Made by a program: the position numbers and the translations under genes | The notes under the pieces: generated by a model | Told to the model about the DNA's origin: nothing | Database searches by the model: none | The model's input: only the letters and a program-made list of their open reading frames with translations | Shown here: positions 5,619 to 39,800 of the stretch, one piece after another | Numbering within the stretch: the stretch's first letter is position 1 | Layout of the letters: the number at the start of each line of letters is the position of its first letter | Source: Rozella allomycis CSF55 | Lineage: Eukaryota | Assembly: GCA_000442015.1 (NCBI GenBank) | Contig: KE560841.1 | Location: forward strand, 1 to 45,887 | Length of the DNA: 45,887 nucleotides | Reading direction: 5' to 3'

Positions 5619-8600
5619 TTATTTAATGCGCTCTTCTTTTGGTTTAAAGAACTCTTCTGCTTTTTGCCTTCGTTCGTAGGAGAGAATAAGTTTGTCTTTA
5701 ACGTGTTGAGGAACCTATATATTTCATTTTAAAAATATACTTTGGACAACAGAGGAAGTGCATCTGAATTAGGGTCTAATTTCAGGGGCTGCCTGTTGTG
5801 AAACCATTTCATGGAAGAATGTGCCACCTGTTTAGGTATTGCAGGAGGTCTAACAGTAAACGATGAAATGTTGATATCTGAAATAAGAGGCTATAATGAA
5901 TGATGTTAGCCTTTACTTGAAAAGGTGGAATATAAGGAAATAGATGATTCTTTTCATTCATTCTGATTATGGGTTTTAGCACTTTCCACAACATATCGTT
6001 GTGATCACAATATTCATTATTATAGAGTAATGTATCCAGTGAGTGATCATTCTTTATAGAAATAGAGCCTAGTTTTTACCTGAATGAATTTCCTTATCAT
6101 GTCCAACTTTTCATTGACTTTAACTGAGCCTTTGTAGACAATACTAAACGTTTTGTTTAATTCAGATAACAGAACTGAAATATTAACGGTAATGTCGCCA
6201 GCAGTTTCACTCTATTTTGAAAAAGGATTTTAATTTTTACTCTGAAATGAACAGTGATGATTTTGGACTCTGATGGTTGAATAACAAATTCTTTTGGCTC
6301 AACAAAGGAAGCTAATTGATTTTTGCCGTCTAAAATTTTGATTGTGACGATTGTATTTCCAGTGTTGACAATTGTAAAAGATTCTCTGACAGTGATGCCT
6401 TTTGAAACAAAAAAATAAAAGTACCTTCTGTTATGATTTGCTTTATAATATTTTCATTTTCCAAATCAATGTGTGAGAATTCAATTGAACAAATTCCTGA
6501 TTTTCCTCTAAATTCTTTTGCGGCGATCATTGTGTTGATTGAAGAAAAAGCATTTATTTTGAAATCAAAAGTATCACCTAAAGAACAAATGGGTGAATAG
6601 TATAATTGAACTGGCCTTGTCTCATTTGGTTTTATATTTTCAATTGATGTAATCAAGTTGGAGTCTATTTTGAAATCTACTATGCTCATATCACATTCAC
6701 TGTTTGTTGCTGAATAATACATTTACCTTTTATTAATGAAATTAAATGATAGACAAATTGGAACAGAAAGATCAACGAGGCCTAAATCTAATGGATCAAA
6801 AGGTGGCTTAGTTTCAATGGAACCCAAGTAATCCACACACTTTCCCTTTAATGGAACGTGATACTCTTTATTTTCTAATTCAACGCATAACAAGCTATGG
6901 TGGATAAGAGCTGAATTTGATTTGAAACTTACTGGAACCAATAGTTCCTGTTTTGGTTGAATTGTCCCTTGAGTGTTTTGTATTTGAAACACTTGATTTT
7001 CATTTTGCTTTAAGTAGACTGAAAAATGTTTATCTGTGCAAGTTAAATTAGTCCATTTGAATGTTTGTGACATTTCCGTGCCGATGAAACAAACACCAAA
7101 ATCAATTTCTTTAAAATCTTTTTCGTCAATTGGTTTCTTATATTATAGATATAAAACAATTACATCGGCTTGAGTACAAAATATTTCAATCTTTTGATGA
7201 CAATTTAGGTAATTTAATTCCAAGAAAGTCTTAATCGAGTTCTTTTCAAGTTTCTCTTGGCACGGTAGAATAGATACATCAATAAAATTAATAGCACATG
7301 GATTGACAAGTAAATTTCTTTGAACTTTTAATTGCTACAGAAAGTTGTGATCGAATTGTTTACTTTATGTGTAGACAGGATTTCAACGTTAATTTCAACG
7401 TTGTTATCATTTTTAATTCCAATTTTTAATGTTTTTTCATCAAATAATCCCTTTTTTGAATAGCGAATCTTTTTACGATTGAACCGAAATCAATCAAGGA
7501 AATTTCGGAATTTAGTTCATCGAGTATTTTCAAATGATTAATAAAACATTTATATTTTATTGGAATTGTAAAGCTGCTGGAGTTTTGTATGGATATATTT
7601 AGTATGGAGTAGTTTTCAACCAGAAGATTTTCATTAAATGATTTTGGTTGAAATGCTATTTCAACTGTGTGTTGATTATTCTTTTTCATTCCCAAAGCAA
7701 AATCTGTTTCATTAATGCGGAAATAATCGTTCTGACAATTTAAAGACAAATTAACTTCTAGTGGTGCATCTCCATCGTTTATTATAGGAAATTCGACAGA
7801 TTTTGATTCGCCAAATAAAATATTTGTGAAATCTAATAGTTGTGGTAAGATTTCTTCTTTTATTTTTAATAAACACCCATAAACTTTACAAAGAATTGAA
7901 TCGGTTGTTGTTTTAGATTTAACAATCAATTTTCTGACATTTTCTTTTAATTTTAACACTTTGCATTTAACGTTTATTATTTTTTCTTGTTTAGACGGAA
8001 TAATTCCATTCATTTCATCGAGTATAGAAAATGGATTATTCAAAGTTGAATCCCACGTCAATTCATATGTACAAACTCCACTTCCGACATTCTTCAATAC
8101 AAAAAACGCGTCACCAAAACTATCTTTTGATATACTTCCAAAATCTACAGAATTATTTTCAATGACTAAATTTGGTATTCCAGTTGAAGCTTTCCACACA
8201 AACCTACAAATTTCATCAAAGTCTTCTAATTGAACCTTTCTCTACAATGACAAATATCTTACTTTGGCTTCAACAATAACAACAACGTCTCTAAATAGAT
8301 CATCCTCCTTGTCTAACGCTTTATAATTGAAACAAATTTCTTTTGAACCCTCTGCTGGTATAATCCCCTCTGGATTTTCTACTTTAAACATTTCATTCAA
8401 TTCTTCTTTGGTTAGTTCAACCCTTGGCAACTCTGATTCAGAATTTTCGTTCAGTTTATTTTGTGAGTTCATTTTCGCTATAGAATTTTGTGAATTCAAT
8501 TTAGATGTAGAATTTTCTGCCAATTTATTTTCTGAGCCCTTCTTCTTATTCTTCTTTTTCTTTTTTACAACTTCTGGCTCTGGAAATAACAATGAAATTC

Positions 8601-11600
8601 TATATTCTACATCAGAACTTCCAAAATTTAAAATAGATCTCTTTTCAGATTTCAAAGATTCAAGATCTATTCTTTCCATAACAATAGAATTTGTATCTTC
8701 CATTTGTATTTGTTCTTCAAAGGCTCTGAAATTGGCTGAAAATTCTCTGGTGATATCAAATTCTAGTACTTTAAATATGATCTGTATCACTGTGTAATGT
8801 ATGGATTACCTTAACAGAAAGTTTGTCTGACTTGCTTGGAGATGCGGTTAATCTAAAAATAGATGTGGCGCGTGGATCCAATTTGAAGGACTCGACATTA
8901 GCGTTTGAATTAACAAAATATTCAAAAACATCAGAGTCAAAAGAAACAGATACGAGAATAGTAAATGGAAAATCACCGTTATTTGCGATTGACAACTGTC
9001 TCTCTTGAGATTCCAAAACACGCATGTTTGTAAAGTTTAGTTGCCCTTGAATGTTTAGTAAAACTTTTCCAATTTCACAATGAATGGGAATGCTAGAAGA
9101 TTCATAATCCTGAACAAGTATTAACAAAGGATAATCTATCGTTTCTCTCTTTATCGGATTAACTTTAAGGACAAATTCTAATCTCTCTGATGGTTGGATC
9201 ACCATAGAATCTATAGAATTCTTAATGACTAATTCATTGTTGTATATTTCTAATTGGTCACTTGGAAGTTCAAATGATATTGAACCAGGACAGGATCCAA
9301 TGTTCTTTAAACTAAATTTTACATTTATTGGACTATCAATTAAAACAATTCGTAAATCTAAAATAGTGGTTTCTGTTATGATTCTAGGTGCTCCTCATTC
9401 ACCCTCAACAAGTAAAGATTCAGAAAACTTTTCCCATTTTAATAAATACTTGACAGAATATTTTAATACTTCTTTTGGCATAAAAATCATTGCTAATGGA
9501 AAAGATTGGCCTGTTGTTATAATAGTCCAACTTTACCTGGTGAAATTGAACCTTCCATTGCACTTAGATCAAAAGGGAAATAGTCATTTGGATTCTTTCT
9601 AGTGAATGGAGACGTTATAGTAAATTTTTCAATAAATTCGCCTTTAAAGTTAGTGAGGATTCATTTACCTTGATTTACAATGTTTAAAGAAAGAGTTTTA
9701 GATTGTTTTCTTGCAACAAGAGAAAAGTTTAATGTTGATGGCTGGAATGCCAATTTGCTAACTCCAACTTGGCCACAAAGAGAAAATCTGCCAATGTAAT
9801 GAGAATTGCCTAGGAATGGTTGAACTATTAAAAGTACCAGTAATTTCAAACACTGAAGAATAAGAGCCACTTTGAATTGCACTAAAGAAAGATCCAACGG
9901 AAATTGATTGATTTGGTTGAATTAAAATGTCATCATTAGTTAATGTGAAGCATTTAAACTTTTTATCAACAACGCCAACAGGTATAACATCCAAATCACT
10001 TAATCTGTTAATTTTAATGAATGCATCTAAATTTCCTTTATTTTTAAGAGAAATAACAAATTTAGATTCTGACTTTTGAGCTGGTCTAATCACCCCCAAA
10101 TTAAATTTCGGAATTTGAGTTTCATTTGTTTTAAACAAATTTAAAGATTCTTTCAACTTTGAATAAACTAAACGCATGTGATCAGAATTTGGAATTAAAG
10201 AAGAGAGAATAGATTCAATTCTATCAATAATCGAGGAAGAATTCAGCTCATCTAAATCTATTTTGATATTTATTTCATTTAAGATATCTTTTAAATTTCT
10301 TTTAATTAAATCAAAATCTAGAGGATGAGATAATTCATTTGGAATTTCTTTCATCAAATTTTCCATTTCAATTATAAATTGGCCGCCAGAGAATGTAATC
10401 AATCCATTTATTTCTTCGCCATCAGGTGTAATCAAGGTATAGCAAACAGAAACTGGAATGTTGAAATCTCTTGGCTGCACAATGAAATCAACTTGAACAT
10501 TCCCATTAGCTGGAATTGCATAATTTAAATTCTCAACAAATGCTAAATCAAATACTTCAATATCAACCTTGTCTCCATTAATTAATGGCGAATGTAAAAT
10601 AGTTTTAAATTTCAATAATTTTGAACTCGTATTTCTCACATTGATTGATTTTGTATGTTTTATTCCAACTTCAACAATTCCATATTCAATCAACGAATCA
10701 TTTTCATCAATCTTCATGAATGGCAATCCAACAATGCCAGAACACATTATAGATCTCACACCCACATCAGTTTCAAAGTATATTGTTGTGTTTAGTGGAT
10801 CAAAATCATTTGGATTAAAACTAACGTTGATTGAAATAGAACCACCTTCAGGAACTACACCACTAAAGGGTTCTATAATCAATACAGAATTGGTGCATTG
10901 AAAGTGGCATTCCGCATCTCCACTATTTGTTGCAATTACACTGAAAGTTCTTTTGTTTCTTAAATAAACAACTCCAAAATCAATTGTCAAAATATTCAAA
11001 TTAAAATTTGGTTTTCCCACAGACACCATCAATGGAATCTTCTTTTCTTCCCAATATCCACCAGGGATTGTTTCATACTTGAAAATTAAATGGGAAGAAA
11101 TATTATTCATTTTCTATCATTTCTATTTATTGTGTGACATACTTGCTTGGCGTAACATTCAATTTGAAATTCAATAGATTTACCAGATTCTAAAATACCA
11201 TCCAATTCGTTTGGATCTTCACTCTGATTAATTTTAAAAATATTGTTTTGTTGAAATAATTGAATTGAGAAATTTGAATTTAGAAATCCTCTATTCGAAA
11301 TCGTTACATTTTTCTGGACTGTCTTTCCAAGTATTACTTTTCCAAATGATATTTTATCATCAATCGTCAACTCTGCACTTGCCCCCGTCCCTAAATAATT
11401 CAGCCTTTTTAATAAAGTTACCTATCAATTGAATCACAGTTTTCCCGTAATTGTGAAGAAAAACTGCTTCACCTTTTCACATTCTATTAATAGATTTACC
11501 CCTGTATTGTGTTTGTGGTCTCACTGGATGGAATTCAACTTGAATTGAAATCTTTCATTCTATATAATACTGAATCTTACCTTTTGTCCAGATTCAATCA

Positions 11601-14600
11601 ACCATTTTCTATCATTAATACTAAATCCTTTTGAAATAGATTTCAATGATAGATTTTGATTCTCAAACGATAAATTAGCCACTTCTAAAAATAGCTTTGA
11701 TGATTCTTGTAATTCTTTATTTCTAACAACACCATACGATTGTCCATTCTGGATACTCTTCTGTACAATAAACATTTCAGCTGGAGCACTTCCAAAATCA
11801 TGAAATGGTGGATAAAACGTTAATTCTCTGTACATTCTACCATTGAGCCTTATAGAAAGAGTCTTTAACAATTTTGGATCAAAAACATTTTCAGTGTCTG
11901 TCAAGATGGGGACATAGTGGAAATTTAATAAACTAGATTTTATGCTTTGAAAAGAACTATTCAATCCAACCTTGAATTGATAACAATAAAATGGTCTTAG
12001 AATGGGCAGTTCAGCACTTCCAAGCATGTTTAATGGAACATTATCTTTTCCTTTAAGAATCAAAGTATTTTTCATAGTTTTATTACTTGCTGAACCTTTA
12101 TTTTTCAAGGTTAAAGTAATTTACTTAATTGTTTTCTATCAAAACGAGTTGTAGGTATTTTAACGTTAATTAATCTAGCAGAGAGCCCCAATCGTTTTAA
12201 TATTTGAAGTTTAGATTTAATTATTTTCCATCCATCTTTCTTTATTGTTGGGATTTGAATGTTATTTTTTTCTAAGTCAGCCGCTGAAAAGGAACACAGT
12301 TGTACAAACATGACCAATTTTTTATAGGAGAATATTTAATTACTTGAATGGTAGATGGTACATTTGAAGACAACGCTTTGATTTGTAATGGCAGAGTTCC
12401 TCTATTGCTTACAAACATATCAACCCATGCGATACACCCATCTCTATATCTTCCAAAATCTATTTCTTTTCTTGTTTCACCGTTTGGTTTATCAAAGGCC
12501 AATTCAACTGTTCCACCAACACCGCGTAAATCTATTAAATGGACTGAATTTTCATAAAATATCTGGCATTTTTGATTAAATGTCTTGCTTTCCAAAGGAT
12601 TGAATGATAATTTAATTTGACTGGAATTATCTTTTAATCTAGATCTAATCTATTCTAGTACCTGGCTTAATTTCAAGAAATTTATTGTCGATATCAAATG
12701 GAGGTTTAGACAATAATGTTAATTCTGTTGATTGTATCCCCTTGTTTGACAAAGTAAAAACATTGTTGATTGGATTATTAATCAGAGTGTTTCCTATATT
12801 GCAAATATTAATGAAATACCAAAATCAATATAATCAGGTGCGCCTAGAATGTTACAAGGGAAGAATCTAATCTGAATAAACTAAAAAGAAATTACTGTCC
12901 ACGCATCACAATAGATGCAACTCTAACAGCTTTACTATTTCTATCCAATGTTTCTTTAATATAAATTTCAGCAAAGCTTTCATAATAACCATTTGATTTA
13001 ACATTAAAGTTGATCTGTAAAGGAAATGTCTCCAATGGGTTAACATCGCCTGAATACAATTGTGGCTCAAATGGCAGCAGATGGCTTTTAGAAAACTTTA
13101 TGGACCAGCTGTAAGAAACATTTCCAATGTTAATCAACAACAAAGTTTGAACTGAAGTTTTCAACATTGAATTTGTATTTTCAATAAAACCAAAATCTAA
13201 AACAATTTCTTCATCTATATTCTTAGAAGCAGGTAACACTAAGAAATCAGGCCTATTTTTACCGATTAATTGACAGAAACCAACACTTGAATCCTTTTCA
13301 GATAAAGTCGCAGCAAACCCATAACATGTTGCCATATCAGGTCCATTGGGTGGAGTGTAGATTATTTCAATGTTTCCAGAATCATTAGATATCAATGAAC
13401 GAGACGGTGGATCAACAGTAAACCCAGTTGAGCTTATAAATGAAATATTGTGATTTTCTTTGCTTTTATTTTGAACTATTGAATTAACAACAACAGGCTT
13501 CCTATCACTTTTTGGTTTGAAAATAACAGATTCAAACTTGAAATTAATTAATGAAGTATAATTTTGAATAGGCAAAACATCTAAATTGTCTAAATGAAAC
13601 AATCTTGTCATGGACTCTTCATTTGCAGGATATTCGTCTATAATACGTCTTGGATGGGCAATCCATGTTTTCAAAAAGTCAAAATTATTGAAATTAAATG
13701 ATTCGGCCAAAGTTGAAAAGGGTTGAACACAAATTCCAACTAGATAGATGGAATGATTAAATGGGCCAGGTTCAATACTAATTGTTTTGTTTTCATTAAT
13801 TTTAAGAGACAAATCAATCTTTTTTAATAAAGGACCTCTTCTTAACCCTTTGAATTTAAAAGACAGTGCAAGGGAAGATCGACCTCTTATTAACGTTTCT
13901 TCGTTTAAATTGACACTAAAGAAAGAAGATTCATTTTGATCAACTTGCAATCCATTTATTTTAAATTTTAAATCATACGTTGACTGATTAATTATAACAG
14001 TGTTGATTGTTTCACTCATTGAATGGAATACAGGTTTGAAGAATACAAAATCATACAATGGAATAAACAGTGGCTGACCAACAAATGCGTGAATAAAAAT
14101 AGGAATATTCTGAAACCCTGGGCAAACTAATTCTATAAATGAATTAAATTGATTTTCATTTTGTATTTTCAATTGAATTTCAACTGTATACGCAGTCTGT
14201 GGGGCTATGCGAATTCTATTATCTATTGTAATGCATTCATCTCTTGTAAACAACGCTATTGTTAAAGGATTATTACTTAGATTCATTATGGTTAACAATT
14301 TCTTATAACTTTGATCTTTTTCGATAATACCAAAATCTATTTTATAGGCATCTTCAATATTTGCATAATGGGAAGATGCATAATAGATACTTTTTAAAAG
14401 ATTTGTATTAGTTTCAGATATTTTTGTCTTTTTTTGATCCCCTTGAATCTTTTTATAGAATTTCTTTAGAAACATTGTTCGCTCTCTAGAAACTCCACTT
14501 GATCCAATATCCAAAACTTCATCATCTTCAACATACAGAGCCAAAGGTACTCCACAGAATCCATTTAATTCAACTGAAATTATTTCTCCGCCCGGGGCTT

Positions 14601-17600
14601 CAATTTGTAATTCTTCTTGAAAAGATCCTTGGTGTGTTGGCATAAATGTTATGGGAAAAGATCTCGTTTCATACCTTTCCAGCCCTATTTTATTCATTGG
14701 AATTGAAAACGTTGGTTCCTTGCTATTCTCCATCAAATCATCTTTATTCTTGTTAACCAACTTGCAATCTAAATAGATCAATTGAGGTGAAACATTTTGA
14801 ATTGAAATTTGCATTTCTCTTTGTTTTCCAAGAATAATCCATCCATAATCCAAGTTTTTGGTATTTATCTTTACAAAACTTGAATTATACGCAATCAAAG
14901 TAGACTGTGCCAACTTTTTCCCATTATCATCCATCACACTCAATGTTCCTTCAGCTTTGTCCATCTTCATGGCCATTGGATAATAAGTGACGTCAATCTC
15001 AACACTTCCATCGCCTACTAAATGCAAATGAAATGATTTAACTCCAAACACTTCCGCTGGCTTTGCTGAAATAAAATATTCCTTTTCTTTAAAATCACTT
15101 CTCATTGATTTATACTTTAATTGCAAGCTTCTAGTCACAGGATTTCTAACTGATTGAAATTCAATTCTTGTAGGCTCAAAACTCATTTTCATTGTATTAT
15201 TCTTAAATGAATCAAATGCGCTACTTTCCTCAAATAACTCGAGTAAATCATTCATATTCTGAGGTGGTAAATTATCTGCAGCGTTGGAATTAAGAACATT
15301 AGAAAACGTTGTCGCGCTAGAAAATAATGACTCTGCTGTAATTGATGCTCTCATGCTATGTCTTTTTTGCAACCTGGCATCTTTAACTTCTAATGCTTTT
15401 TGGACCTCAGGTTTATTCCTTTTTAAACTAGCCATCATTTCTTCAAACATCTTTGTCTTTATATCACTTTTAACTGATTCTTCATCATCACTCATGAAAT
15501 CATAATTCTTCATTTTATCCATGGCGTATCTTTGTGACAACTGTATGATACCTATATCTTCCACTTTTACCATTTACCCTTTTGTTTTAGCAAACTTGAT
15601 ATATCATAGAATGGTATTCCATCAGGCGTATAACCTACAGGACTAGGAATAAAAGCTCCACCAGGAATAAATATTGGTTGCCCTTCATAATCATAGCCAA
15701 CAAAAAGGTTTGAGGGCTTCACTGGCTCCTTTTTATTATAAAATCTTTTTCCAGATAAACTCATCGCTGCTGGTATGGGCTTAACCGTTGCCGTCTTTGA
15801 AAAGTATGGGATTCCTTCATCCGTATAACCACAGGGCACTGGTGGCATATTTCTATTAAATAATGTTTATAAACTCTTACACAGGAGGTGCAAAATACGG
15901 CTCTCCCTTAAATGTAATTCCCGCGGGACACGGTTCCACAATTTTGTATTCAGAATTTCTCTTTGCCAAAATTGCCATATCTTTCACAGTCGCTTTCGTA
16001 ATATTACCTTCATTATAATTATCATTGATTATCTCCAAATTAACTGTAATCCAAACATCATCCTTCCCTCTTGGTCTCACATATACGCTGAATGTAGAGC
16101 CAACTATAAATTGCCGTCTATTTCAACTTGAAAAAAATTATACTTGCTATCTCTATCTGCCTCTACTGAAATTGATGAAACATCCTTGTTTAGCCCAACA
16201 ACTTTGCTCAAAAACCTAACTGGCTTCTTTCCTGGTTGAATAATCTCAAAAACAACAGGTGCATTCATAACAAAATCTGAATTTGGCTTCTCATTTTTTA
16301 ACAATCTCTAATTAACTACAAAATGCCTTTACGGATCAACAGTCGGCCACAAGATTGGATGTCGCTCAAATGTATATCCTTCAGGCGCAATAGAAACAAT
16401 TTGTCTTTTTGTTTCTAATCTTAATGGCGTTGATTCGTAATCTTCAGGCTTGAATTTCCCGGGTGTAAATGGGATAGATGTATTTGGAGATATTTTCAGA
16501 AATCCCCTGGGTATCCCAGTCCTCACATCTGCATCCTCTAATGGGGGTTGTTTAACATAATCACTTGGCATCTGTTTTGAATTTATTAGTTTAGAAGGTG
16601 AATATGTATATCCGACTGGTAGCCCCGGCACATTACCGCTTCGCTCACTTGCTTCATATGCTGACACAGGAGGCTCAATTCTAACTTCACTGTCTGTGTG
16701 GATAAAAGTTGGTGGAACAGTAGTCGCATTTGATGGAACCCCCGGAATGGGCGGTAAAGGCCGAGATATAGACACAAAAGACTCTGCATGAATCGGCAAT
16801 TTAACAACAATGTCAGCAGTATATATCAAAGAAGAATTCATATCAACAAACAGTCCAGGTGTTCCATCAACACATTCCAGCTGTGTCGACGTCCCTGGAT
16901 TCATCAGCAATTGTCTAAACAGCAATGTCTTCTTGTTAATCTTTGCTTCTTCTTCGTCTCTAACCTTTTTTATTCATTAAATTCAATATTTACATTCAAC
17001 AACGATTTTAAATCCTTTTCGTAAATGCTTTCCTTCATTTCAGGAACTAAAACACATGCTTCCTTTAAACCAGATATTAACGTCTTTATGGCATTCACAG
17101 AAGAGTACTCATTTTCAACAGGCAACCACACACTATCACTTCCAATTCTTCTTTTTACCTTGCGAATTGGATAGCGTCAGCTTGCATGTGCTCCAAATTC
17201 ATCTTTATCAAATTATTCATTTGCTTAAGAAACAACGCACCCACCACCATTTTGTTTTTAGAATTCGTACTTAAATCACCATTTAGCAATTTCAAGACGG
17301 TTTTAATCAGAAATACGTCAGAGTTAGATACTTCAAATTCTCTAAAACAAATATAGAGCATCATTTCATCCATGTATTTTGCTATTTCAGAACTGTGCAT
17401 AAATGACATTCTGGTATATTTCCCCAACGCATGATACAAGTATATTTTGGTTTCCCTCGTGTGCTCAACCAATTGACCGTATCTTTGATGGTATTTAACA
17501 ATACAATACCTTTCACAGTTTTGCAATTGTAATAGTCTAGCAGCAAGCTGCTTGAAGCCATACAATGAAAGCTGCTCGTGACCAGTTTCTCCACCTAAAT

Positions 17601-18156
17601 ATACTCCCAATTTGCCCAAAAGGTATATGGACTTCAGTCTACTCTCTTTGCGTTCATCACTGTTCATTATTCCAACTAGGGCATCCACTAATTTCTACTA
17701 TTTTACAACAGATTTTGTTACATGCTTAACTTCTTCCTCGGGAAGAGTCTTACATATTTCAGGCACGGCTGCCAAAAGAACTCTTAATGTGAGAAACCTA
17801 ATCAAAGGCTCACAATGTTTCAATCCCATGGTAAGTATCATCCATGCTCTTTTGTACATTAGTTGCTGCGTAAAGGTGTCAGCGTATCCTATAAAAATTT
17901 TCCAATCGTTTTACCAGAGTCATGAGATATTAACCCTTTGCTAATCATATTAAGAGCCTTTGTCAAATTCAAATTCAATACCTCAAGGTTCTCAGTGCCT
18001 TTTAATTGGTCCATAACACGGTTGACAATTTGATCAAACTCATGAATATTGGCCGACTTTGACACATAGCCACTAAAATATCCTTTTTTCTTAATCATGT
18101 TTAGCGTAGTATGATACCAATAAGTTGCGCAAAATATCCCAATAGTTCTTTGTCAT
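5619..18156 (-). CDS. Giant (~3800 aa) multi-exon protein with many tandem ASH/Hydin/PapD-like Ig domains, probably ciliary; about 33 mini-introns
   Basis: Repeated (I/L)DFG...(L/I)xNxG...F.P signature across ORFs 5809-15573. All minus-strand ORFs join in frame through 26-31-nt GTA introns from ATG 18156 to TAA 5619, except one TGA at 9395-9397. Confidence 0.75.
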
Positions 18157-18477
18157 TAATAATTTAATTGAACCAGGGTTTGAACAATATGGACACTTTA
18201 ATGAATGAACTAAATGCTTGGCTTTATTTGGCTTTATTTATAAATGCTACTTTTGGCGGTTTCATTTAGCGCTTCAGCTGAAATACTCTTTGTGGCAGTA
18301 CTTGTTTAATGTATGATATGTCAACCCCTTTTTATGTTTTGTATATTTATAGTTTGTTTATCCTCAACAAAGATATCAATTACAGTACGACTTTTGATTT
18401 GGATAATCCATTGATGAGTGCAATGTAGCATGAAAATAGAAAATGTCTTTGACCTCGCCACTTTTCCAGAAAACTCC

Positions 18478-19569
18478 ATGAATTCAAATACTTCAACTAA
18501 CTGGAAAAATGTTAACAATTGGCATTGGCTGGAAAAAAATTGTTTCCCGTGGGCAAAGGAATACTTTCAAAATGCATTCCAAACCAAACTAGATGTAAAT
18601 GGCACTCAAGTCTCGTTATCATTGAAAGAAGTATCGGGAGATGTTGATGTTAACCAAAGAAAAGGGAAGATTATCACTCTCTATGATTTAAAGTTTGTTT
18701 TGAACTGCGAAATTAGCGATGTGAAAACTCAAATAGAAGTACCTGAATTTAACTCGATTGATGAAACTTACGAAAACTGCCAAGTAATTTAACCAAAAAC
18801 CTTTAATAGATTGTTATAGAAACAAGCGTTAAATCTGAACATTCAAAAGTAATTGAAGATGCTATCAGAAAAATATTGTTGAAATTTACTCAAGAATTAA
18901 TTACCAGTAATTCACAAAGTCAATTAACACAGCGCATGTTAATGATCTCGTGATTCCAAGTGGTCGTATGGTTCTCCCAGATGTTAAAGCCGCTGAAAAC
19001 CAAAAATTCATTGATAAAAAGACAATGATATCTGAAGAAGATGATAAATGCAACGTTGCTGTTTCAAATATCGACCTAGNGTTCTCCCAGATGTTAAAGC
19101 CGCGGAAAACCAAAAATTGATTGAGAAAAAGACAATGAAATCTGAAGAAAATGATAAAAGCAACGTTGCTGTTTCAAATATCGACCTAGAGACTGAATTT
19201 CAGTGCCCAGCCGCCGATTTGTTTGACTGTTTTACGAACGCTCAAAGAATAGCTGCCTGGACACGTTCGCCTGCAGAATTTACTCTTAAAAACGAATCTG
19301 CATTTAAGCTGTTTAATGGGAATATAATGGGAAAATTGTTGTCCTTTGAGCACAATAAGTCAATAACTTTGCAATGGAGGTTGAAAACTTGGCCTGTCAA
19401 TCATTTTTCTGTGGCTACTCTCAATATTTTGCCAGGAAGTGACTCTACGGTACTCAAGCTTCATCAGAAGAACGTCCCTAGAAGCGAACTTGAAACCACA
19501 AAGAAAAATTGGCAAAGTTATTACTTTGACAGCATAAAGAGGACTTTTGGATATGGGGCGTTTGTATGA
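18478..19569 (+). CDS. AHA1: Hsp90 ATPase activator Aha1 (Aha1_N + AHSA1/START-like domain); two 26-nt introns; duplicated segment at N19080
   Basis: NVNNWHWLEKNC, GDVDVNQRKGK, LFNGNIMG, QWRLKTWP, NWQSYYFDSIKRTFGYG. Confidence 0.95.
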
Positions 19570-19658: not shown

Positions 19659-20656
19659 TTACTTTTTCATATATTGTTTGATTTGTAAATATTTCGCATA
19701 CAGTTCCTTTGTCTCTTTAAGTTCCGCTTTTGTTAGGTCTGATTTTTTCTCATGGTGGGATTTCTTTATGTTGTTTAGATAAATATTTATCTTCTTTTTG
19801 ATAATTTTTAATTCTTTTATGGGCACGTCGTTCTTGTCTATCAAATTGTCAACATAGTTAATAAATGCTTCAATATTTTGGCCATAAAGCTTTCCGGCTT
19901 CAAGACCAGGTCGACAAGTAAAGTTTGCGCATTGATTTTGAAAATTTACAGAATCCAATATATCAACTCGAGGTCGACCTTTTTGATTCTCGTTTCTTTT
20001 GTATGTCGACACGGACAGTGGGCATTTAAAAATAGAATATTCTATTAAATTGTTCAAATTGAAGGAATGCTATAGTCAGCATACAAATGACTTTACATTG
20101 TCGAATTCGCCAAATATTTCATTTGTATTTGAAATTATGTTGATGAAGATATCTGAGGATTTACTATCATGAATTATTTTAGGCGCCCATATTTTTGATA
20201 ATTTGACTATGTTTGTTTCATTGATGGCTTCAAAAACTTGAACATTTGAAAACAAATGGGACAACATCCTCAATGGAATGTAGTATAGATCGTCCAAGTC
20301 ATCAATTATATTTTTCATTTCGTTTATATTTGCTTGTGATATCATTGAATTGGCCTTACATTTTTTGTTGAAAAGGTTGAATATTGTATCTTTGGAAAAT
20401 GCCGAATGAAAATGTTCTTGAACGAGGGAAAACAATTTTGCAACAACAATAGGATACTTTGTTAAGTCTCCATCATATTTTTTTGAGTTTTGATTGATGT
20501 TTGTAAAAAGATTTGGAATTTGCCAAACTTTTATAGAGTTGGGTAAATTTTACTGTCTGTGGTGTACAACGTTTGGACCAAGGATTGTATTTGATCAAGA
20601 CGAGATTCTTGAGTTTTATGTAGATGGTATTCATTGATTGAATTTGAATGAAGCAT
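19659..20656 (-). CDS. Divergent RhoGAP-like domain plus FAM13-type C-terminal coiled region; two mini-introns
   Basis: LRMLSHLFSNV...N..KLSKIWAPKII resembles the RhoGAP C-terminus; ELKIIKKKI...KELYAKYLQIK resembles the FAM13 tail. Spliced model starts MLHSNSINE. Confidence 0.5.
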
Positions 20657-20745
20657 TTTTTTCTTCTTGGCAACCGAGCGCGGGAGTCAACAAAGTCACT
20701 GTGACGAAAAATAGTGTAGAATTTTAAACTATACAATGTGATAAT

Positions 20746-23700
20746 TTATTTAAATGAATCGATTTCTATGATTGCCAGTAACTTGATGACGCAAGGTAAA
20801 TCTAATTGAACTGGCAATTCTTTTGATGGTGGTACAGGAGTGAATCTATATTCTAAAGTTGATGGATAATCTAAAGTTATCTTTTTCGGGTATTCCATGT
20901 TTTTATAATGTAATTGAATTGCAGCGTCAATGTATTCCAGTGGAACTTTAGAAACAAATATTGTACATAGTTTTCTGAGTTGGATTGGAGACAAAAGGCT
21001 GTAAATATTAGTATCGTGGAATGTATCTTTTCTTGAAGGGTCTTGCAATAAAAATCTAGAATATAGTGTTGTTTTCATTGTACTTTATCATTTCACTGAA
21101 TGTATTTAAACAATCGTGAGTAGATTCAAGCTTATGGTCAACTTTTGTAGAGTGATATATTTTGTTACTTTGCCAATTCCTTAATAAGTTTAAATTGTAT
21201 TGTATTTGAAAGCATCTTGATTGATCAATTAGTTTAGAAATTTACCTGGAATTAATAAACTTTGATATAATTTACCTATGTTTCAGAGAACATTTCGGCT
21301 TACCTAGTTTAAATATGATAACTTGCATACCTATTTATTGTTGCAAAACCATTTCTCATTAAGAATTGATTCACAAGTGCTACTTGTATATTTGAAAAAA
21401 TGTTTATGAATAAACACTCTATTAAATGTAAACTTGAATGATTTTCTTTTAATTCTTTGTAAACTTTGTCCATGATGTCGATTAGGTCACTTAAAGTTGG
21501 AGGTTTGTGCAAGTAGCTCTTTTTGTAATCTTTTTCTTTTAAATTTATGAGATTTTGATCATCTAAAATAGAAAACTGTGAAACTTCAATTCTCTTTTTG
21601 AAATCTTTGACCAATTCTTGAACAAGAGTGTTGCATAAATCCCCTAGTCGAACTGTCAAGGAATTCCAGGCAGAGTGTAAAATAGATTCATCGTTTATTA
21701 AACTGGAAGATTTTATTGAATTCAAGTTAAATTGGAAAGAAGTTAGATGATTTCCAAGGTTTGAATAGTGAATCAGTTGGGAAAGAAGAGACAATTTTTG
21801 AATTGATTTTAAGTGATCAGAAAATTTATTACTCAAGAGAGACAGCATACCGAATGCCCAGCAAGAAAAGAAAAAGAATGAAGAAACTTGAGACAGTAGA
21901 GGCTCTGAAAGGTTATCTAAACTAATTTCTTGGAATAAATTTGGATCTGAGATGAATTCTTTGATGTGATTTCTAAGAGAATATTGAGCCAAAATGTCTG
22001 TAGAGTTGTTTATACTATCGATTTCAGAAAGTGAGTTGGATAAAGATTTATTTTCTTGTTTTATTTCTTTATTTTCTGAGATTAATTTAAAATTTTCATT
22101 TCTTAAATAATCGTTTGTTTCTTGAATCTTGTTCATTTCTAATGTTTTTTGATTTAATAGATCTGTTAATTGTGACACTTTGGCGTTAAGTTCGTGTACT
22201 TTATTTGTTAGCTCAATAACTTTATTTTCTAAATGATAATTTCTTTCATTTATTCTATTCATGCTTTTAGCTTCTTCTCTTAATTTTATTAATTCTCTTT
22301 TAGCGTTTCTGCACTTTACCAATCGTTGGATTTTCTTTATAGACTCAATGTCTTCAATTCTTTGTTGTTGAAATATTATCCCTCTAATTTTACATTGTAT
22401 TTTTACAACAACAATTTCAAGTTTACGTTTCTTAAATTGAGAATCAACATTGTACTTTCTAATAATATTCTGCAGTTGTAAAATCAGTTTCAATTTCTTT
22501 AATCTATTATTTAATTGGATTCTCTTTCTGATTTCAACTTGTATTTTTATTGTTATCTTTTTCTTTTTAGCGTCAACAAATCTATTTCTGAAAATTCTAG
22601 ATTTGATTAAACCCTGGATCACAAACAAATTTTTCATGAAAAGATTAAACTTGGTTCTTATCAAACAACCTTTAAACCATTTCTGAATCAACAATGCTGC
22701 ACTCTCCATTTTATCATCTCTCGCTTTCTCAATGAACGCCATCTAATAAAGAATGTTTGAAATAGAATTACTTGGCCTACCCTGAAGAATATTCTTGTTT
22801 TCCCAATTTGATAATCCAGTGGCCCTATTGATGACGTTACAGATTTTAAAATTGATTCGGCTATTACTCTTGAATCGTCAGACTTCACACAGGAAAGCAT
22901 TGAAAACCTTTAATAATTAACATTTCAAAATTACCTATCATTGAATTCTTCAAGATTAAATTTTATTGGATACCCGGCGCAACTTATTCTTATTGTCTCC
23001 AGAATCCCACAAGCCCTCAATTGCTGAATCACATACAAATTATCGAAATAAAAAGGCTTCTTTTCTTCATTTGGCTTAATACATCGAATATAATGCGTTT
23101 CTGTTGAATTTATTGTTTCCATTAAAGAATGTAATGATGTCTTTATCAAAAGGAACTATTTGAGTACTTTAAATTGCAAACTCAACGATCTCTTGGACCC
23201 TTTTTCACATTCGCGTTTTGGTAAAAGCCATTTCAATTTATCAGGCTCTAGCAATAACGATCTCACTTGTTCTGAAATGTTATCCTTATTCTTTTCAATA
23301 AACCCTTGACCATGATATGTCACAGAATACGCGAAATGATGAATAAGAAAATTACATCCGCCAAATCTTGGTTTACTAAAACATTTATTTTTGTTGTCTG
23401 CAAATGATTGGTAGAGTTTATTAACAAAAGACTTGTTCAAACTATTGTCAATAGTTACTTGGTCTGATCCTCTAGGCAAGTAAGATTCTTCATCCAGCAG
23501 ACTTAAAATCCCGCTTCTGTTTTCAATCATTTCAATACAATCAGAATTATCATTAAATTCTATAAATGACCAATTAATGCCTTCCTCTACATACAACTAG
23601 GTATTAAATGTAACAGAGCATTACCTTTTGTTCTAAATCAAAAACATGCCGATTAAATTCTTGTTGCAGCTTTTCATTAGCATAGTTTATACAGAATTGC

Positions 23701-25156
23701 TCAAACGAGTTATTCTCAAAATATTCAAATCCATAAATGTCTAAAACTGCAATGAATCTCGTGGCATCTTTTTTAGTTACAAGGCTTATATTGATTTGAT
23801 TTACTAGCCCTACATAGAAATTCAAAATATTCCATACATTCAAACAGGCTCGAATACAAAAATTTAGAAATCCCATCCCTTACTTGGACCACTTGATGGT
23901 CTTCAAGTTGACTCTCAATACTTTCATTTCTCATCTTTATTAGCCGATGTGTCATCCACTTTTTAAGTTCAATCATGTCAACTCCTATCAATCTATGAAT
24001 AATATTCAAATTTCTGGTAATTGGCTTCTCTTTGTCCAATTCATCCACTTCAACATTTCCAAGATAAAGTATGGCAGCTAAAACCTGGAAAATCCATTGT
24101 TGCTTCTCCTTGTCAATTTTCATCAGAGTTAACGCACTGTATAACTTTATATATTTTCAATACTTTATTGTATCCTCGAAATCTTTCTTATCATCAACAT
24201 CTTTAATTCTTGTTGTCCCCGATAAATATTGAAAATCACTAGCATCACCAATCCCATATTCGGCTTTATACCCATCTTCTAGTCCTGCACAAAGTTGATA
24301 AAATATGTGATAATTCCGCTCATTTTTGGCTTGTCTAATAACTCTTGATCGCTCTAGCAAATAAGTTCGGATTCTCGCCCCATTTAGACTATTAAACTAC
24401 TCATACCTACAATAGAATTTCGCTCATCAAAAAGAATCTCTACAAACTTTCCAAATCTACTACTATTGTCATTCCTAGTGGTTTTCGCATTTCCAAACGC
24501 CTCCATTATTGGATTTGTTGAAAGAACTTGTTCCTCAATTCCAGAGTTTTTCTGGCAATCAGCGCTTGCAAAATATCGCATCATGAATTTTGCACTAACC
24601 TGTATATACATTCTCAAAAACTATCTCTACCGTTTTGCCACTTCCAGATTCTCCAGATATAACCACACTTTGGTTTTTATTATACCTCCTCAATTTACTA
24701 AACGCATCCTCTGCAATCGCATACAAATGCGGCTCAAGTTCTCCTTTTGATCTGCCATTATAGACTTGAACAACCTCTTCTCCGTAACAATCTAATCTGC
24801 TAAATGGATTCAAAGCTATCAAAACTATTCCTGAATACGTGTAAATCATTCCTTGATCATATCGATACTTTAACACTTCAAGAACTATTATACTGCATAA
24901 CCATTCTTACCGCCAGGTTCATGAAGAAAATTCATCACTGTTAAATCATCGAATTCAGATGTCGCGTTTTTTAAATGTGGAAGCTCTTTCAACACTGTAA
25001 TTTCCCCAGCTTCATCCTCAACTTTAACTATTTCATGCTCAATTGACTTTATGGTAGCCACTTTCCAACCCTGCTTCTCACAAGCTATATGTACTTGACT
25101 TCCCTATCAAATAATGAAGCAAGAATTACATTTTTATAGAGATCTCGTTTGCTCAT
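20746..25156 (-). CDS. MYO5: Class V myosin (motor, IQ repeats, coiled coil, DIL domain)
   Basis: [59 protein letters not shown] motifs; after splicing [12 protein letters not shown] (DIL). Starts [13 protein letters not shown]. Confidence 0.95.
21216..21330 (-). other. Compound intron of four abutting GT..AG mini-introns (27+28+30+30 nt)
   Basis: Three internal AG|GTAA junctions at 21304/21303, 21276/21275 and 21246/21245; removing all 115 nt restores the DIL reading frame. Confidence 0.85.
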
Positions 25157-25289
25157 CAATTTCCTGAATTTTCGGAATCCTTCTTTCTAGTTGGAATTTT
25201 CATTTTTTAGCGAACAGTTTGTGATATATCACTGAATTTGACCTGTCAAATAGATATAAAGACTTTCACTGTTAATTGTAAGGAAAACA

Positions 25290-26468
25290 ATGATCGACTT
25301 TATCTCACTTTGTTTTCTCTTTTCGTTTATATGGACAAACCCAACACCTTATCCTGCAGATATACAGCGAATTCAAGAGGCTTTCGGATTAACTACAAGT
25401 TATTTACCCCATACTTTCGATTCTAATGGGAAAAAATATGCAGACTTTTCAAAGAGAATGTCATTTGAAAACATACAAGAAGACGTTGCTTTTATAATCC
25501 ATGGAATGAAATCTTCAGGAAAGTCTTCATTCATTGGCGCGTTATCAAGGTCCATAAATTCTGAGAATATTGAATTAATCGATGAGACGGAAGGCGCAAA
25601 ACTAATTGCTCTGAAAATCCCCAATTCAAGCCATAAAATATATTTTATTGACACGGAAGGTTTTATCGACGGGTTGTTGGACGAAAATGGTGTTCGGAAG
25701 ACTGTAGAGATTTTAGATTCCGCAAAAAAGTTATTGCGTAAAATCCCCGATGCTGTTCTCAAGAGAATCTATTTTTTCATTGATGCCAACCAAAGAACAA
25801 ATTACTTTATTCAACATATATCAAAGCTAAAAGTAGCATATGGGAAAGAAGTCCTTGAAAACGTAGCGGTAGTAATGAGTCGTTGTGATACATTAAGAAT
25901 TGAAAAGAAGGCCTTTAATGAGTATCTTGACGACTTTAAAGTGAAAACCAAAGAAGCATTCAGTTCTGAGCCAACCATTTTGTTTATTTCGTCCAGATCA
26001 AAGGACAGATGTGTGAACCAAATAATTGAAGATATTCAGTTGACAATGAACTTTAAATCCAAGAAATTAGTATATAGTTCAGAAACACAATCAGAGAAAA
26101 TAGAAAAAATTTATGGACGAATAGAAGTTTTTGCCAAAGCAAAAGAACTATTGGAGATTAAGAAAGAAGAGTTGATGAAGAAAATAGAGGAAAGATCAAC
26201 CAAAAATCAAATTGGCATGTATGTATTGGGATTCGTAGGTGTCTTTGCTACTCCTTTGGTTTGTCCCCTTGGTGTTTTGTTGGTGTCTAGCAACTTGTCA
26301 GAAATGATAAGAGTAGAAACGGATCCTGAAATTTGTGCATTATTTGAAAGTAAAGTCAATATAAATAATGTTGGGTCTATTGATAATGCTATAAATTTGA
26401 TTGACGAAAAGGTATCGACCCTCAAAGAAGAAGTTTGCAGGCTAGGGAAGTTTGAAGAAGAGAAATAA
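25290..26468 (+). CDS. Intronless P-loop GTPase (AIG1/septin-like TRAFAC type) with hydrophobic N-terminus, coiled coil and C-terminal hydrophobic segment
   Basis: G1 GMKSSGKSS, G3 FIDTEG, G4-like VMSRCD; N-term MIDFISLCFLFSFIWT; hydrophobic IGMYVLGFVGVFATPLVCPLGVLLV. Confidence 0.8.
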   Translation: MIDFISLCFLFSFIWTNPTPYPADIQRIQEAFGLTTSYLPHTFDSNGKKYADFSKRMSFENIQEDVAFIIHGMKSSGKSSFIGALSRSINSENIELIDETEGAKLIALKIPNSSHKIYFIDTEGFIDGLLDENGVRKTVEILDSAKKLLRKIPDAVLKRIYFFIDANQRTNYFIQHISKLKVAYGKEVLENVAVVMSRCDTLRIEKKAFNEYLDDFKVKTKEAFSSEPTILFISSRSKDRCVNQIIEDIQLTMNFKSKKLVYSSETQSEKIEKIYGRIEVFAKAKELLEIKKEELMKKIEERSTKNQIGMYVLGFVGVFATPLVCPLGVLLVSSNLSEMIRVETDPEICALFESKVNINNVGSIDNAINLIDEKVSTLKEEVCRLGKFEEEK

Positions 26469-30663: not shown

Positions 30664-31400
30664 ATGCATGCACCATCAAACAACGAGTTCAGAATTCAAG
30701 TAGACTCTCTAGAAGACATAGATTATATTTTATCACAATTACATTCAGTTCTTCCTAAAACAAAGTCATCAGAGTCAGTAAACCCGATTTGGTCCAATCT
30801 AATAGTTCCTCAATGAAATGGCCAATATAATAAGTAAAAACATACTGGTAAATGGGAACGAATGGGTTCCCGGAATGAAAAGGAAGAGTAATCTTCTTGA
30901 ATACTTTGAATTAGGATTTGAGCCTCTTGATGAATCCTTGTTCCAAAGGTTGGAACAATTAGTGCAACAAGTGGATGAACTCGCTAATAAAGTTGCTGTT
31001 TACAGGCGAGAATCATATGGTATACTGCGAAAAAAGGTCCGAGCCCACTATGAAAATGCATTGACAAGAGTGAAAGAAAATATGGACTGCAAATTCGAAA
31101 CAACAGAAGTTGGATCACCTGATAAATGTATTATTCAATCTAAACGTAAAGAGATGTGTTTTTCTTCTCCTAGTTTTTGAAGAATCTATTCAAATGTTTC
31201 AAGATGCTAAAGATACATTTGAAAAATTGAAACTTAATCTTCCAAAAATATCTTCTAAACTTGAAAGAGCATGTACAGTGATGGATGACGAAAATGATCG
31301 CAATACAAGGTTGAAAAATGGTACTGAGCTTCCTGATACGCCAATATTGGAAAGAACAAAAAGGCCTTTGTTGGAATCGTGCCTCAAAAAATCAAATTAA
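30664..31400 (+). CDS. NSL1: Kinetochore MIND/Mis12 complex subunit Nsl1/Mis14-like; three mini-introns
   Basis: RIQVDSLEDIDYI, NILVNG, FEPLDESLFQRLEQL..QVDELANKVAVYRRE, LPKISSKLERA. Confidence 0.7.
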
Positions 31401-31467
31401 TTGAGAATGATTTATTGCAGAAAATAAAATTGAAAGCAGTATTTTTCCATTTACTTTACCATTTTCC

Positions 31468-36831: not shown

Positions 36832-39800
36832 TTATAGGTCAGCTATGATGCTTAGGAACTTGTCATACGTAATTTGAGCTTGCTTGTATCGTTGAACAAT
36901 TGATTCTAAATCTTTAGAGCGCTGCAAAGCACTGATAGGGTAAAATTATTAAAATTACGGGTGTTGATAAGACAAGTGCATGATTGCTTGGACGGTAGGT
37001 TTATGTGCATTAATAATAGTGGCGCGTATTAGGGCAGCCAGTGAACAATTTGATATAATGACATTGGATTGGAGTGGGCCAAAGAAAGATATCTAATAAA
37101 ACGGAATGAAAAGGTTACCTTTTGGTCGCGATAAACGTCTATCGCGAAAAGACCAGATTTTAGAGGATTGATTACAATGACAACATTTCCAAAGTCCCCT
37201 GAAATAGTGTTAGGTTTGTAAGGTTTGTTGTTTTCATTCCAAACAATGTGAATGTGATCGTTGCCGATATGGCGTTTCTTTTTTATATTTTTTGGGTCAT
37301 TATGATCAGAGGGTATCAAGGTAACGTCGTGGAACATTATTTCACAGAAAGAATCGCAATAATAAATTGAATATTTTCCTGTTGTCAAATTTCTGTCTAG
37401 ACCACCCATGTAGCCTAAATGTGATTCCAAGTCAACCTTTGTGATTACAGAGAAAACCTTTACTGTCCAGCCTAGGCTAGAAACAAACTTTCTATATGAT
37501 ATGCTTGGGTTTTGATTTGCCAGTATAGAAGATTCATATTCCTGATCTTTAGCGACATAAATCAAAGCAACTTTGACTAATTCCCTGCAAGGTTTCTTAT
37601 CAAGAGCTTTAATGTCCCGAAGAAGATTTTGGTTATCAGAAAAGATGGAAAATGAGCCTTTTCGAAAGACATCTGCGTCGAGAAACCCAAATTGACTTAG
37701 GAAAACTCTCCCAACGTTCACTTTCTTCTCAGGTACAGTAGGCGGCTCAACTTTTTCGAATGGCAGACATGTTTTAGTTTATCAAAGAAATTACTTTGAA
37801 TTTATTGTTTGAGATTCCAAATTGTTCATTCTTTCTTGGATTTCTTGGATGCTATCTTCTAGGGCCATTGGCGGGGGCAGAGTTTGGGTCAATGAAAACC
37901 CTTCCTTGATAAAGCAGTCAGGATGAGTTTCTTCAAGGCTACAATTGCAAGCTAATTTTGTTACTATTTTAAACATTCAAGTAGCATGTCGCATTTTTCA
38001 GAATTATTGGAATTTGTCCACAGGGGAATTTCACCTTTATTTCTTTTAAATCCATAATTAATTTCTTCCATTTTATTGCATTTAATATCAAATGGTTGCA
38101 ATTCGGCTGTTTTATAAGAACAGTCAGATTGAAGTGGAGTCACTGACCATGTAAATTTACCAAAGTTGTTCCTTGTGACAATTAAAATTGAATCTTCCTT
38201 GTAAACAACAGACATAATTAAAGAATCGTTGACACAAAAATGTTTGCATGCAGCAACAGGATCGTCAACCCAATTTGATCCTAATATTTCTGGAATAGGA
38301 TTAGGAAAAGAGTGTAAATGATGGGCAGCGTGCATAAAGACAAACTCTGCCAAATGTTTTAAAAGAACTTCATCATTATCTATTGTCTTTGACTTTTTGT
38401 TTTTTGTGTAATTTAAACAAAATTCAATTGCTTCGAAAAGTTGACCTTTTGTTTTCTGATTATTTAATAATTCAGGAAATTTGAAAAGCCACTTGGAAAT
38501 TTCGGAAAGTAAAGAATAGACTATCGGTTTTGATGTCTCTATGTGATGAAAAATAGCAGCCGTTAATTTCTCTATAATATTAATGGATTCTAAAATATCA
38601 AGTTTATCTATGAATAAACTGATGCAATTGACAGTCGCAGACAAGACTGATTCAACATTATTAGTGAACAGTTCATTTAATAACAATGAGAGTGTAGATT
38701 CTTTGAAGAAAATATTCTCAAGAGTCATCATTGTTATAATGAATAGGATTGACATTGAAATTTCACTATTGTCGTGTTGGCAATCCTTTGCTACAATTAA
38801 AGAAGCGTAAAGAGATTTCTATGCAAAAATGAATAAATTTGGTACTTCAAGTTCATTGTATGTGGTATCACCGCATTTTATAGAACTAAACAACTTACAA
38901 AATGAGAAGATTGAGTTTATGAGCGAAATGCAACTCTTTCTTATTGTGAATTCTTGATTTGGCTTTGTTAAAATGGTTTCAAAGTTTTTCAAATATTTGG
39001 GAATGAGAATGTTAACCCCTGGAATATCCAAAGTGAATATACTTTGTGAATGGTTTATTAGAGAATATAGAATATTTGATTCTTTGTATTCCAACCCCTC
39101 TAAATGTACAATTGAATAAGTTACTTGATTTAGAGTTAAAATCATTTTCTCTTTATATTTAAAATCAACATCTTCAATTTTTTGAGATATTATTCTGGCC
39201 AGGGTCGCAAATGCTATTGATTTACCGGGGTTGAACATTCTACAATTTCCCATGGTTCAATCCTGTTACTGTGATAGCAAAGTAGAGTCTATAATTGTGT
39301 CTATAAAGCTTGATAATTTTATTTTTGAATCCCTTGCTCCAATGTCATACTTTTTCAAAAACAATAAAATCTCGACCAGGGAAGCGATACAAGATAGTGA
39401 CTCTGAATGTATTTCTGGTCTCTTTAATTAATTGACCTCTTATTTTCTACTTGGATGTCATTGATATTTCCAATTAAATTGTAAACTTTAAACCACAGAG
39501 TATCGGTGACTTTGATGTTAAAATCCCGGAAAAGATTTTCTTCGACATCATCTAAAGATTCAACACAACTTGCAAAGAGCCCTTTTAACGAAACAATTCC
39601 GTCTGAATTCGACTTTTAAAATTTCGAAATTCTATTACGAATTCTTGAGACATTGATGGAACCATAGAATTCTTTTTCCCAGCATTAAATTGCATGTAGA
39701 GAGATACAAAATCTACTTCAAATTCATCAATAAAATATCTTCTGGTTAAATACAAGATTGATTTCTATTCTAATGACGCGAATACATTACTTTCCATTGA

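Follow-up and report, generated by a model that had tools for sequence, protein, structure and literature searches.

We analysed a window of 45,887 nucleotides (nt) from the fungal parasite Rozella allomycis CSF55 (assembly GCA_000442015.1, contig KE560841.1, positions 1 to 45,887), the minus strand of which encodes a myosin V-like protein with a motor, an IQ region, a coiled coil and a DIL-type tail (20746..25156). The homology-curated gene model predicts 1321 amino acids (aa) and ends in a TAA stop, and thus the standard genetic code applies. Within the tail, the coding sequence is interrupted by 115 nt (minus strand, 21330-21216) that tile exactly into four GTA...AG units of 27, 28, 30 and 30 nt, with nothing between them. 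We refer to this arrangement as the chain.

The long exon that precedes the chain (21331..22742) ends ...ATA AAT AG, in phase 2 within an Arg codon, and the exon that follows it (21084..21215) starts A TGC TTT CAA ATA CAA TAC AAT (R-C-F-Q-I-Q-Y-N). An ordinary 28-nt intron (21056..21083, GTACAA...CTAG) then leads to the last exon (20746..21055), which has 102 codons plus the TAA and carries the LSPIQLRKL part of the DIL-type tail; all of these features lie on the minus strand. In the direction of transcription, the units are GTATGC...CTAG (unit 1, 21304..21330, 27 nt), GTAAGC...ATAG (unit 2, 21276..21303, 28 nt), GTAAAT...CCAG (unit 3, 21246..21275, 30 nt) and GTAAAT...CAAG (unit 4, 21216..21245, 30 nt). 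The acceptor of one unit stands directly against the donor of the next at three AG|GTA junctions (21304/21303, 21276/21275 and 21246/21245). Unit 2 alone has a length not divisible by 3 (lengths mod 3 across units 1-4: 0, 1, 0 and 0). When retained, unit 1 contributes an in-frame TAA and unit 2 reads AGG TAA. An original prediction, made from the letters of this window, had described the structure with its unit sizes and stops; the sequence reads as written there, and the tiling and retention tests agree with it.

A search of both strands of the window for chains of at least two GTA..AG units of 24-33 nt returned this chain as the sole example. In 300 dinucleotide-preserving shuffles of the window, again on both strands, the longest chain had four units in 0, three in 3, two in 262 and one in 35. 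The pattern AGGTAA-N20-28-AGGTAA has two matches in the window, both within the chain, with 0.03 expected and at least two matches in 0 of 100 shuffles.

DNA contigs of four runs (X6, X7, X9 and X1), all from one sample and without joints, were aligned to the locus. The X1 contig is identical to the window over 20600-23919. X6 and X7 yield a contig of an allele about 1% divergent (20813-22757, no joints). Of its 19 differences in 1945 nt of the tail, 0 lie within 21216-21330, so that the chain is the same in both of the alleles that these contigs represent. Since X1 is possibly the source of the assembly and all runs come from one sample, this agreement is confirmation and not independent evidence. 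An assembly artefact or a chance arrangement is highly improbable. The window does hold a scaffold gap with duplicated flanks near 19080, but the contigs cross the chain gaplessly in both the reference and the divergent allele, and chance is ruled out by the chain shuffles and the AGGTAA spacing test. The four-unit tiling is real in the DNA and far beyond chance.

Reading frame of the tail and the public gene model

Based on retention tests and alignments, complete removal of the chain is needed for the conserved reading frame. All 15 combinations that keep at least one unit meet a stop at the junction or no more than 7 codons from it, and the frame is open on full removal only. In the frame set by removal of the 115 nt, 43 and then 102 codons are open downstream, with the ordinary 28-nt intron between them. 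No gap is needed to align the resulting junction protein with IMRRNYLSWKRGLQLNYNVTRIEEW of two Myo2-type proteins (P0002 and P0003), to which the 1321-aa model also aligns. In two-sequence BLASTP searches, the spliced tail matches the DIL region of these proteins with expectation values (E) of 1e-5 and 2e-6, and the junction is crossed without a gap. The junction is likewise gap-free in 11 of the 12 tblastn high-scoring segment pairs (HSPs) with metagenome myosin loci that span at least eight residues on each side; in the twelfth (L067), an intron belonging to that locus is read through at the junction.

Profile and database searches add to this picture to differing degrees. When exon pieces were scanned against the Pfam DIL profile (PF01843), the 43-aa exon after the chain matched profile positions 31-68 from its residue 2 (E 0.0062; 17.1 bits, under the 24-bit cut-off), and Pfam scans of the upstream DIL pieces gave no match. 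Piecewise sequence searches of PDB returned no match or one irrelevant match (E 0.94), and a representative-sequence search with the last exon returned three, none better than E 1e-15 and none of them the query itself. Protein searches matched only the public protein of this gene (P0001) and the two Myo2-type proteins. As for the motor, PF00063 is on record for P0001, and the conserved motifs align with Myo2-type proteins. Full removal of the chain had been predicted to restore a collinear DIL region, which the gap-free Myo2-type alignments bear out, with the profile match standing under its cut-off.

Two other gene models were rejected. The model with the fewest introns keeps the frame open through the chain by means of a 19-nt and a 60-nt intron, and adds 12 residues to the conserved core. 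A Viterbi model with a flat length penalty, which places for example a 248-nt intron across the chain, deletes aligned coding sequence.

The public model P0001 (1026 aa), named 'Myosin head, motor domain-containing protein', continues into unit 1 and stops at its TAA, losing the last 146 residues. This end could be taken to mean that the chain is mostly kept, with a truncated, tail-less protein or a decaying tail as the result, or, in a variant of this reading, that regulated retention selects either a myosin that binds cargo or a truncated one. The stop produced by every kept unit would fit such a reading, as would the allele differences in the exons after the chain, of which 1/3 falls at a third codon position (a hand count, with numbers too small to weigh). 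However, P0001 is mis-spliced throughout: it is without GARIRTYLL, other conserved motor segments and part of LFEWLVNQIN, a loss that seems due to introns being called too long. Since it is mis-modelled elsewhere, its end inside unit 1 carries no weight. The 43 and 102 codons that remain open in the exact frame and align to the Myo2 DIL-type tail (E 2e-6 and 1e-5) also argue against retention, which we regard as improbable. The chain and the introns of ~27 nt break the public model, in which the cargo-binding half of the tail and motor segments are lost; published intron statistics and protein sets for Rozella, a key fungal outgroup, may therefore be affected.

Within the motor, a 27-nt GTA..AG segment (minus strand, 23432-23458) has a length that is a multiple of 3 and no in-frame stop, so that its retention would add 9 residues and not a stop. 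Alignment of LPRGSDQ|SFVNKLY with yeast LPAGNDESWITKLY indicates that it is an intron.

Introns of the window and the fit of the four units

Codon-usage Viterbi gene models, with the chain excluded, provided a catalogue of 64 GT..AG introns. Their lengths are narrowly distributed, with 13 introns of 26 nt, 20 of 27, 11 of 28, 10 of 29, two of 30 and four of 31, i.e., 60 of 64 at 26-31 nt; the other four (20, 20, 21 and 24 nt) may be model errors. The donor is GTA in 62. By this Rozella norm, the chain is long. AG precedes the donor in 14 of the 64 introns, and in none is the acceptor followed by GTA. No intron among the 64 curated in the window exceeds 31 nt, and thus, within the limits of the gene models, the claim that the chain is the only intron above that length holds for the window. 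With an extra penalty of 8 or 12 on introns of more than 36 nt, the models contained none of that size. At a penalty of 4 they proposed six long candidates, of 127, 41, 210, 65, 311 and 53 nt. The 41-, 210- and 53-nt candidates resolve into short GTA..TG introns, the 65-nt candidate spans an N gap, and the 311-nt candidate is gone at higher penalties. For the 127-nt candidate, the sole short alternative is a doubtful 31-nt GTG...TG intron.

Short introns ending in TG occur elsewhere on the minus strand of the window. A 26-nt GTA..TG intron at 24381-24406 restores, on removal, a motif identical to yeast Myo2; another of 26 nt (40846-40871) joins two halves of an open reading frame (ORF) in frame, and one of 27 nt (37768-37794) joins a 588-aa ORF to a Rap_GAP exon (E 2.4e-39). 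A fourth TG-ending candidate, on the plus strand (31379-31409), is doubtful. The minus strand also carries a very large gene (6330-18098), modelled at ~3679 aa, whose 27 introns are all of 20-31 nt, with no long one.

A splice matrix built from 59 GTA introns (their first 8 and their last 10 positions) gives units 1-4 scores of 7.03, 7.56, 9.12 and 8.18 (46th, 71st, 98th and 80th percentiles). True introns have a leave-one-out mean of 7.08 (standard deviation 1.19), and 298 decoy GTA..AG pairs a mean of 5.85, with a 95th percentile of 7.93. The chain contains only five GT..AG pairs of 20-36 nt with a GTA donor, namely the four units and one 32-nt pair, the use of which would leave a donorless remainder. 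When the units were compared in sequence, five of the six pairs scored like most of 1711 background intron pairs. The pair of units 3 and 4 is borderline, its score being reached by 2.6% of the background, which loses significance over six tests. A search of the chain for repeat families gave none. These near-background scores support the original prediction that no unit is a copy of another, and mark the units neither as introner-like elements nor as tandem duplicates. Folding of the 115-nt RNA is unremarkable (z-score 0.34, with 124 of 200 shuffles equally or more stable), and thus we predict no RNA structure that would bring the outer splice sites together.

Metagenome sequences were used to compare intron positions. 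A scan with a motor exon recovered 80 myosin loci, none from a close rozellid (at most 74% identity over the exon), which we used for intron positions only; a scan with the tail exon for close relatives gave 510 pattern matches and 0 confirmed. Thirty-four of the 80 loci have a match to the DIL region. Ten of these are interrupted right after ...SWKR and 24 are continuous; for L051 and L073 the script label 'continuous' was overridden, an intron being seen at that place in both. At the nucleotide level, five loci (L042, L044, L071, L051 and L073) have an intron that falls in phase 1 of the codon following the Arg, which is 2 nt farther downstream than the Rozella site. Its length is ~50-56 nt in the three loci with clean HSP breaks. 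In the other five, an insertion appears at the same place. All ten share NFSSWKR...AMQIQYN, and thus they probably belong to a single fungal clade.

Some introns of the Rozella myosin gene are shared exactly, in position and phase, with fungal myosin V loci of this set (L001, L003, L042, L044, L051, L071 and L073 were compared): that at codon 74, phase 1, with four loci and that at codon 659, phase 2, with three. Another, in phase 1 of codon 395, comes within 1 nt of an intron of L042. The introns shared at codons 74 and 659 imply that Rozella keeps old intron positions, at which its tiny introns largely lie, and the chain probably lies at or beside an old intron. As its site is 2 nt from the intron position of the other clade, one or more of the units may derive from an old intron, in which case not all four would be new insertions. 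Our guess is that an old intron lay here or close by and that more introns were acquired at the AG|GT junction it offered; subdivision of the old intron would be an alternative.

Proposed stepwise removal, its main rival and its parallels

The reading that we favour, at a probability of about 58%, is that the 115 nt comprise four autonomous Rozella introns of normal size, arranged in a head-to-tail row, with exons of zero length in between, and each removed separately. Each unit would be recognised alone by intron definition (GTA donor, AG acceptor, ~27-30 nt) and excised in its own splicing reaction, and the four reactions could take place in any order. The upstream exon and every unit end in AG and every unit starts with GTA, so that the removal of any unit would re-form a normal donor and acceptor context. 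Moreover, since the donor of any unit paired with the acceptor of any later unit leaves whole units only, any order would work. The earlier claim that removal of a unit regenerates AG|GT holds at the level of sequence, with exon|GTA re-formed after any pairing.

Several points weigh against this reading. Stepwise removal, and with it the use of the internal sites, is inferred from the DNA sequence alone and from a single case in 46 kilobases (kb). The splice signals are low in information and the decoys overlap the range of true introns, so that an intron-like score gives the units weak support. The intron catalogue comes from our own gene-model script, with homology curation for the myosin gene only, and the allele comparison is uninformative on constraint, given 0 differences in 115 nt against ~1 expected. 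Direct pairing of the outermost donor with the last acceptor is also compatible with the sequence.

This last point leads to the main rival, in which the 115 nt are one intron, excised in one reaction between the outermost GTA and the last AG, with internal AG|GTA sites that are relics (e.g., of serial insertions) and are unused or used occasionally. The outer sites are ordinary, related fungal myosin loci have the introns of 50-56 nt only 2 nt away, and such lengths are generally within reach of fungal spliceosomes. However, none of the other 64 curated introns is longer than 31 nt, no fold shortens the distance between the outer sites, and perfect tiling by units of normal size is unexpected unless the internal sites are, or were, functional. 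We consider removal in a single step unlikely.

A stronger form of the favoured reading, in which each unit is spliced separately, would hold that the Rozella spliceosome has a hard limit of ~31 nt. Longer interruptions could then exist only as concatemers of minimal introns under obligate recursive splicing, which would grow since the exon|intron junction AG|GTA would itself be the preferred insertion site for new introns, and the locus would record repeated gain beside an ancestral intron. This form is possible but doubtful, and a length-limited spliceosome would be proposed here from one chain in 46 kb. The role as a splicing delay or isoform switch, suggested in the original prediction, would likewise be speculative and drawn from this one case.

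Recursively spliced animal introns are very long, and to our knowledge the 115-nt chain is far shorter than any known recursive intron. Zero-length exons themselves have precedents. The respective reports give 196 zero-nucleotide-exon ratchet points in Drosophila (10.1101/006163) and, in S. pombe, a zero-length exon within a 336-nt intron of SPNCRNA.445, with two instances of recursive splicing overall (10.1101/226894). The ratchet points of Drosophila, vertebrates and S. pombe resemble the chain in the abutment of AG and GT and in that one step regenerates the site for the next. In contrast to the chain, which in 115 nt has three consecutive zero-length exons and pieces of minimal size, they cut long introns into long, unequal pieces. 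Intermediates are documented for the ratchet systems, whereas the Rozella chain is known from DNA.

Two further systems are similar in part. Dual-specific AGGT sites can act as donor or acceptor in human genes, with a tandem array in UBC, according to passages of PMC10809524, and share with the chain an AGGT core usable in both roles. However, the sites in UBC bound coding repeats and give variable isoforms, whereas those of the chain bound non-coding, non-repeat segments, all of which must be removed. Stwintrons, described in PMC5639578, PMC9024468 and PMC6616335, are complex introns of filamentous fungi that standard splicing excises in one reaction after another. In the stwintrons of those descriptions, an internal intron splits the donor, branch or acceptor of an external one, and thus the two are nested and spliced in a fixed order. 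The units of the chain are instead adjacent, each complete from GTA to AG and without a split signal, and could be spliced in any order, which sets the chain apart from stwintrons.

Genomes with ultra-short introns (Paramecium, Stentor, mikrocytids, myxozoans and the Bigelowiella nucleomorph) are like Rozella in having a narrow distribution of lengths near the minimum. All mikrocytid introns are of 16-17 nt, and introns of less than 30 base pairs occur in myxozoans, as stated in PMC10245619 and PMC13644364, respectively. Abutting or recursive introns are not mentioned in the passages retrieved from PMC13644364, PMC12862383 and PMC10245619. For Rozella, a search that did not cover the 2013 genome paper or supplementary files found on intron size only a passing remark, in the retrieved part of PMC6349667, on two S23 introns of ~30 nt; the word 'intron' is absent from the text of the Paramicrosporidium genome paper. 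A literature search on abutting, tandem or back-to-back mini-introns or zero-length exons in organisms with short introns found no such description. As recursion through zero-length exons is already known, what differs here is the scale and regularity, with three consecutive zero-length exons and all pieces of minimal size, and with a host whose introns are ultra-short.

If the units are spliced singly, the chain would be the smallest form of recursive splicing, with three zero-length exons between minimal introns. It would also offer a direct handle on whether spliceosomes adapted to ultra-short introns have an upper length limit in addition to a lower one, which is usually approached via length distributions only. 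In addition, the chain may record introns gained at an AG|GT junction.

Alleles and neighbouring features

A second allele is also represented over part of the motor, where it has 36 differences in 1074 nt, with reference-type contigs alongside it (X6 and X7; 20600-25300). In the tail exon, 9 of 15 allele differences are at third codon positions. The presence of two alleles at the myosin locus suggests a heterozygous diploid or a mixed culture.

At lower window coordinates, a scaffold gap (~19020-19200, with N at ~19080) with near-duplicate flanks lies inside a plus-strand gene (18430-19569), and is probably a join made in assembly, at which the gene model is split. Near the start of the window, two intron-less ORFs on the minus strand (1510-2778 and 319-627) have, by eye, the appearance of a retrotransposon integrase with a chromodomain-like end and of a gag-type zinc knuckle (CFKCRQSGYC).

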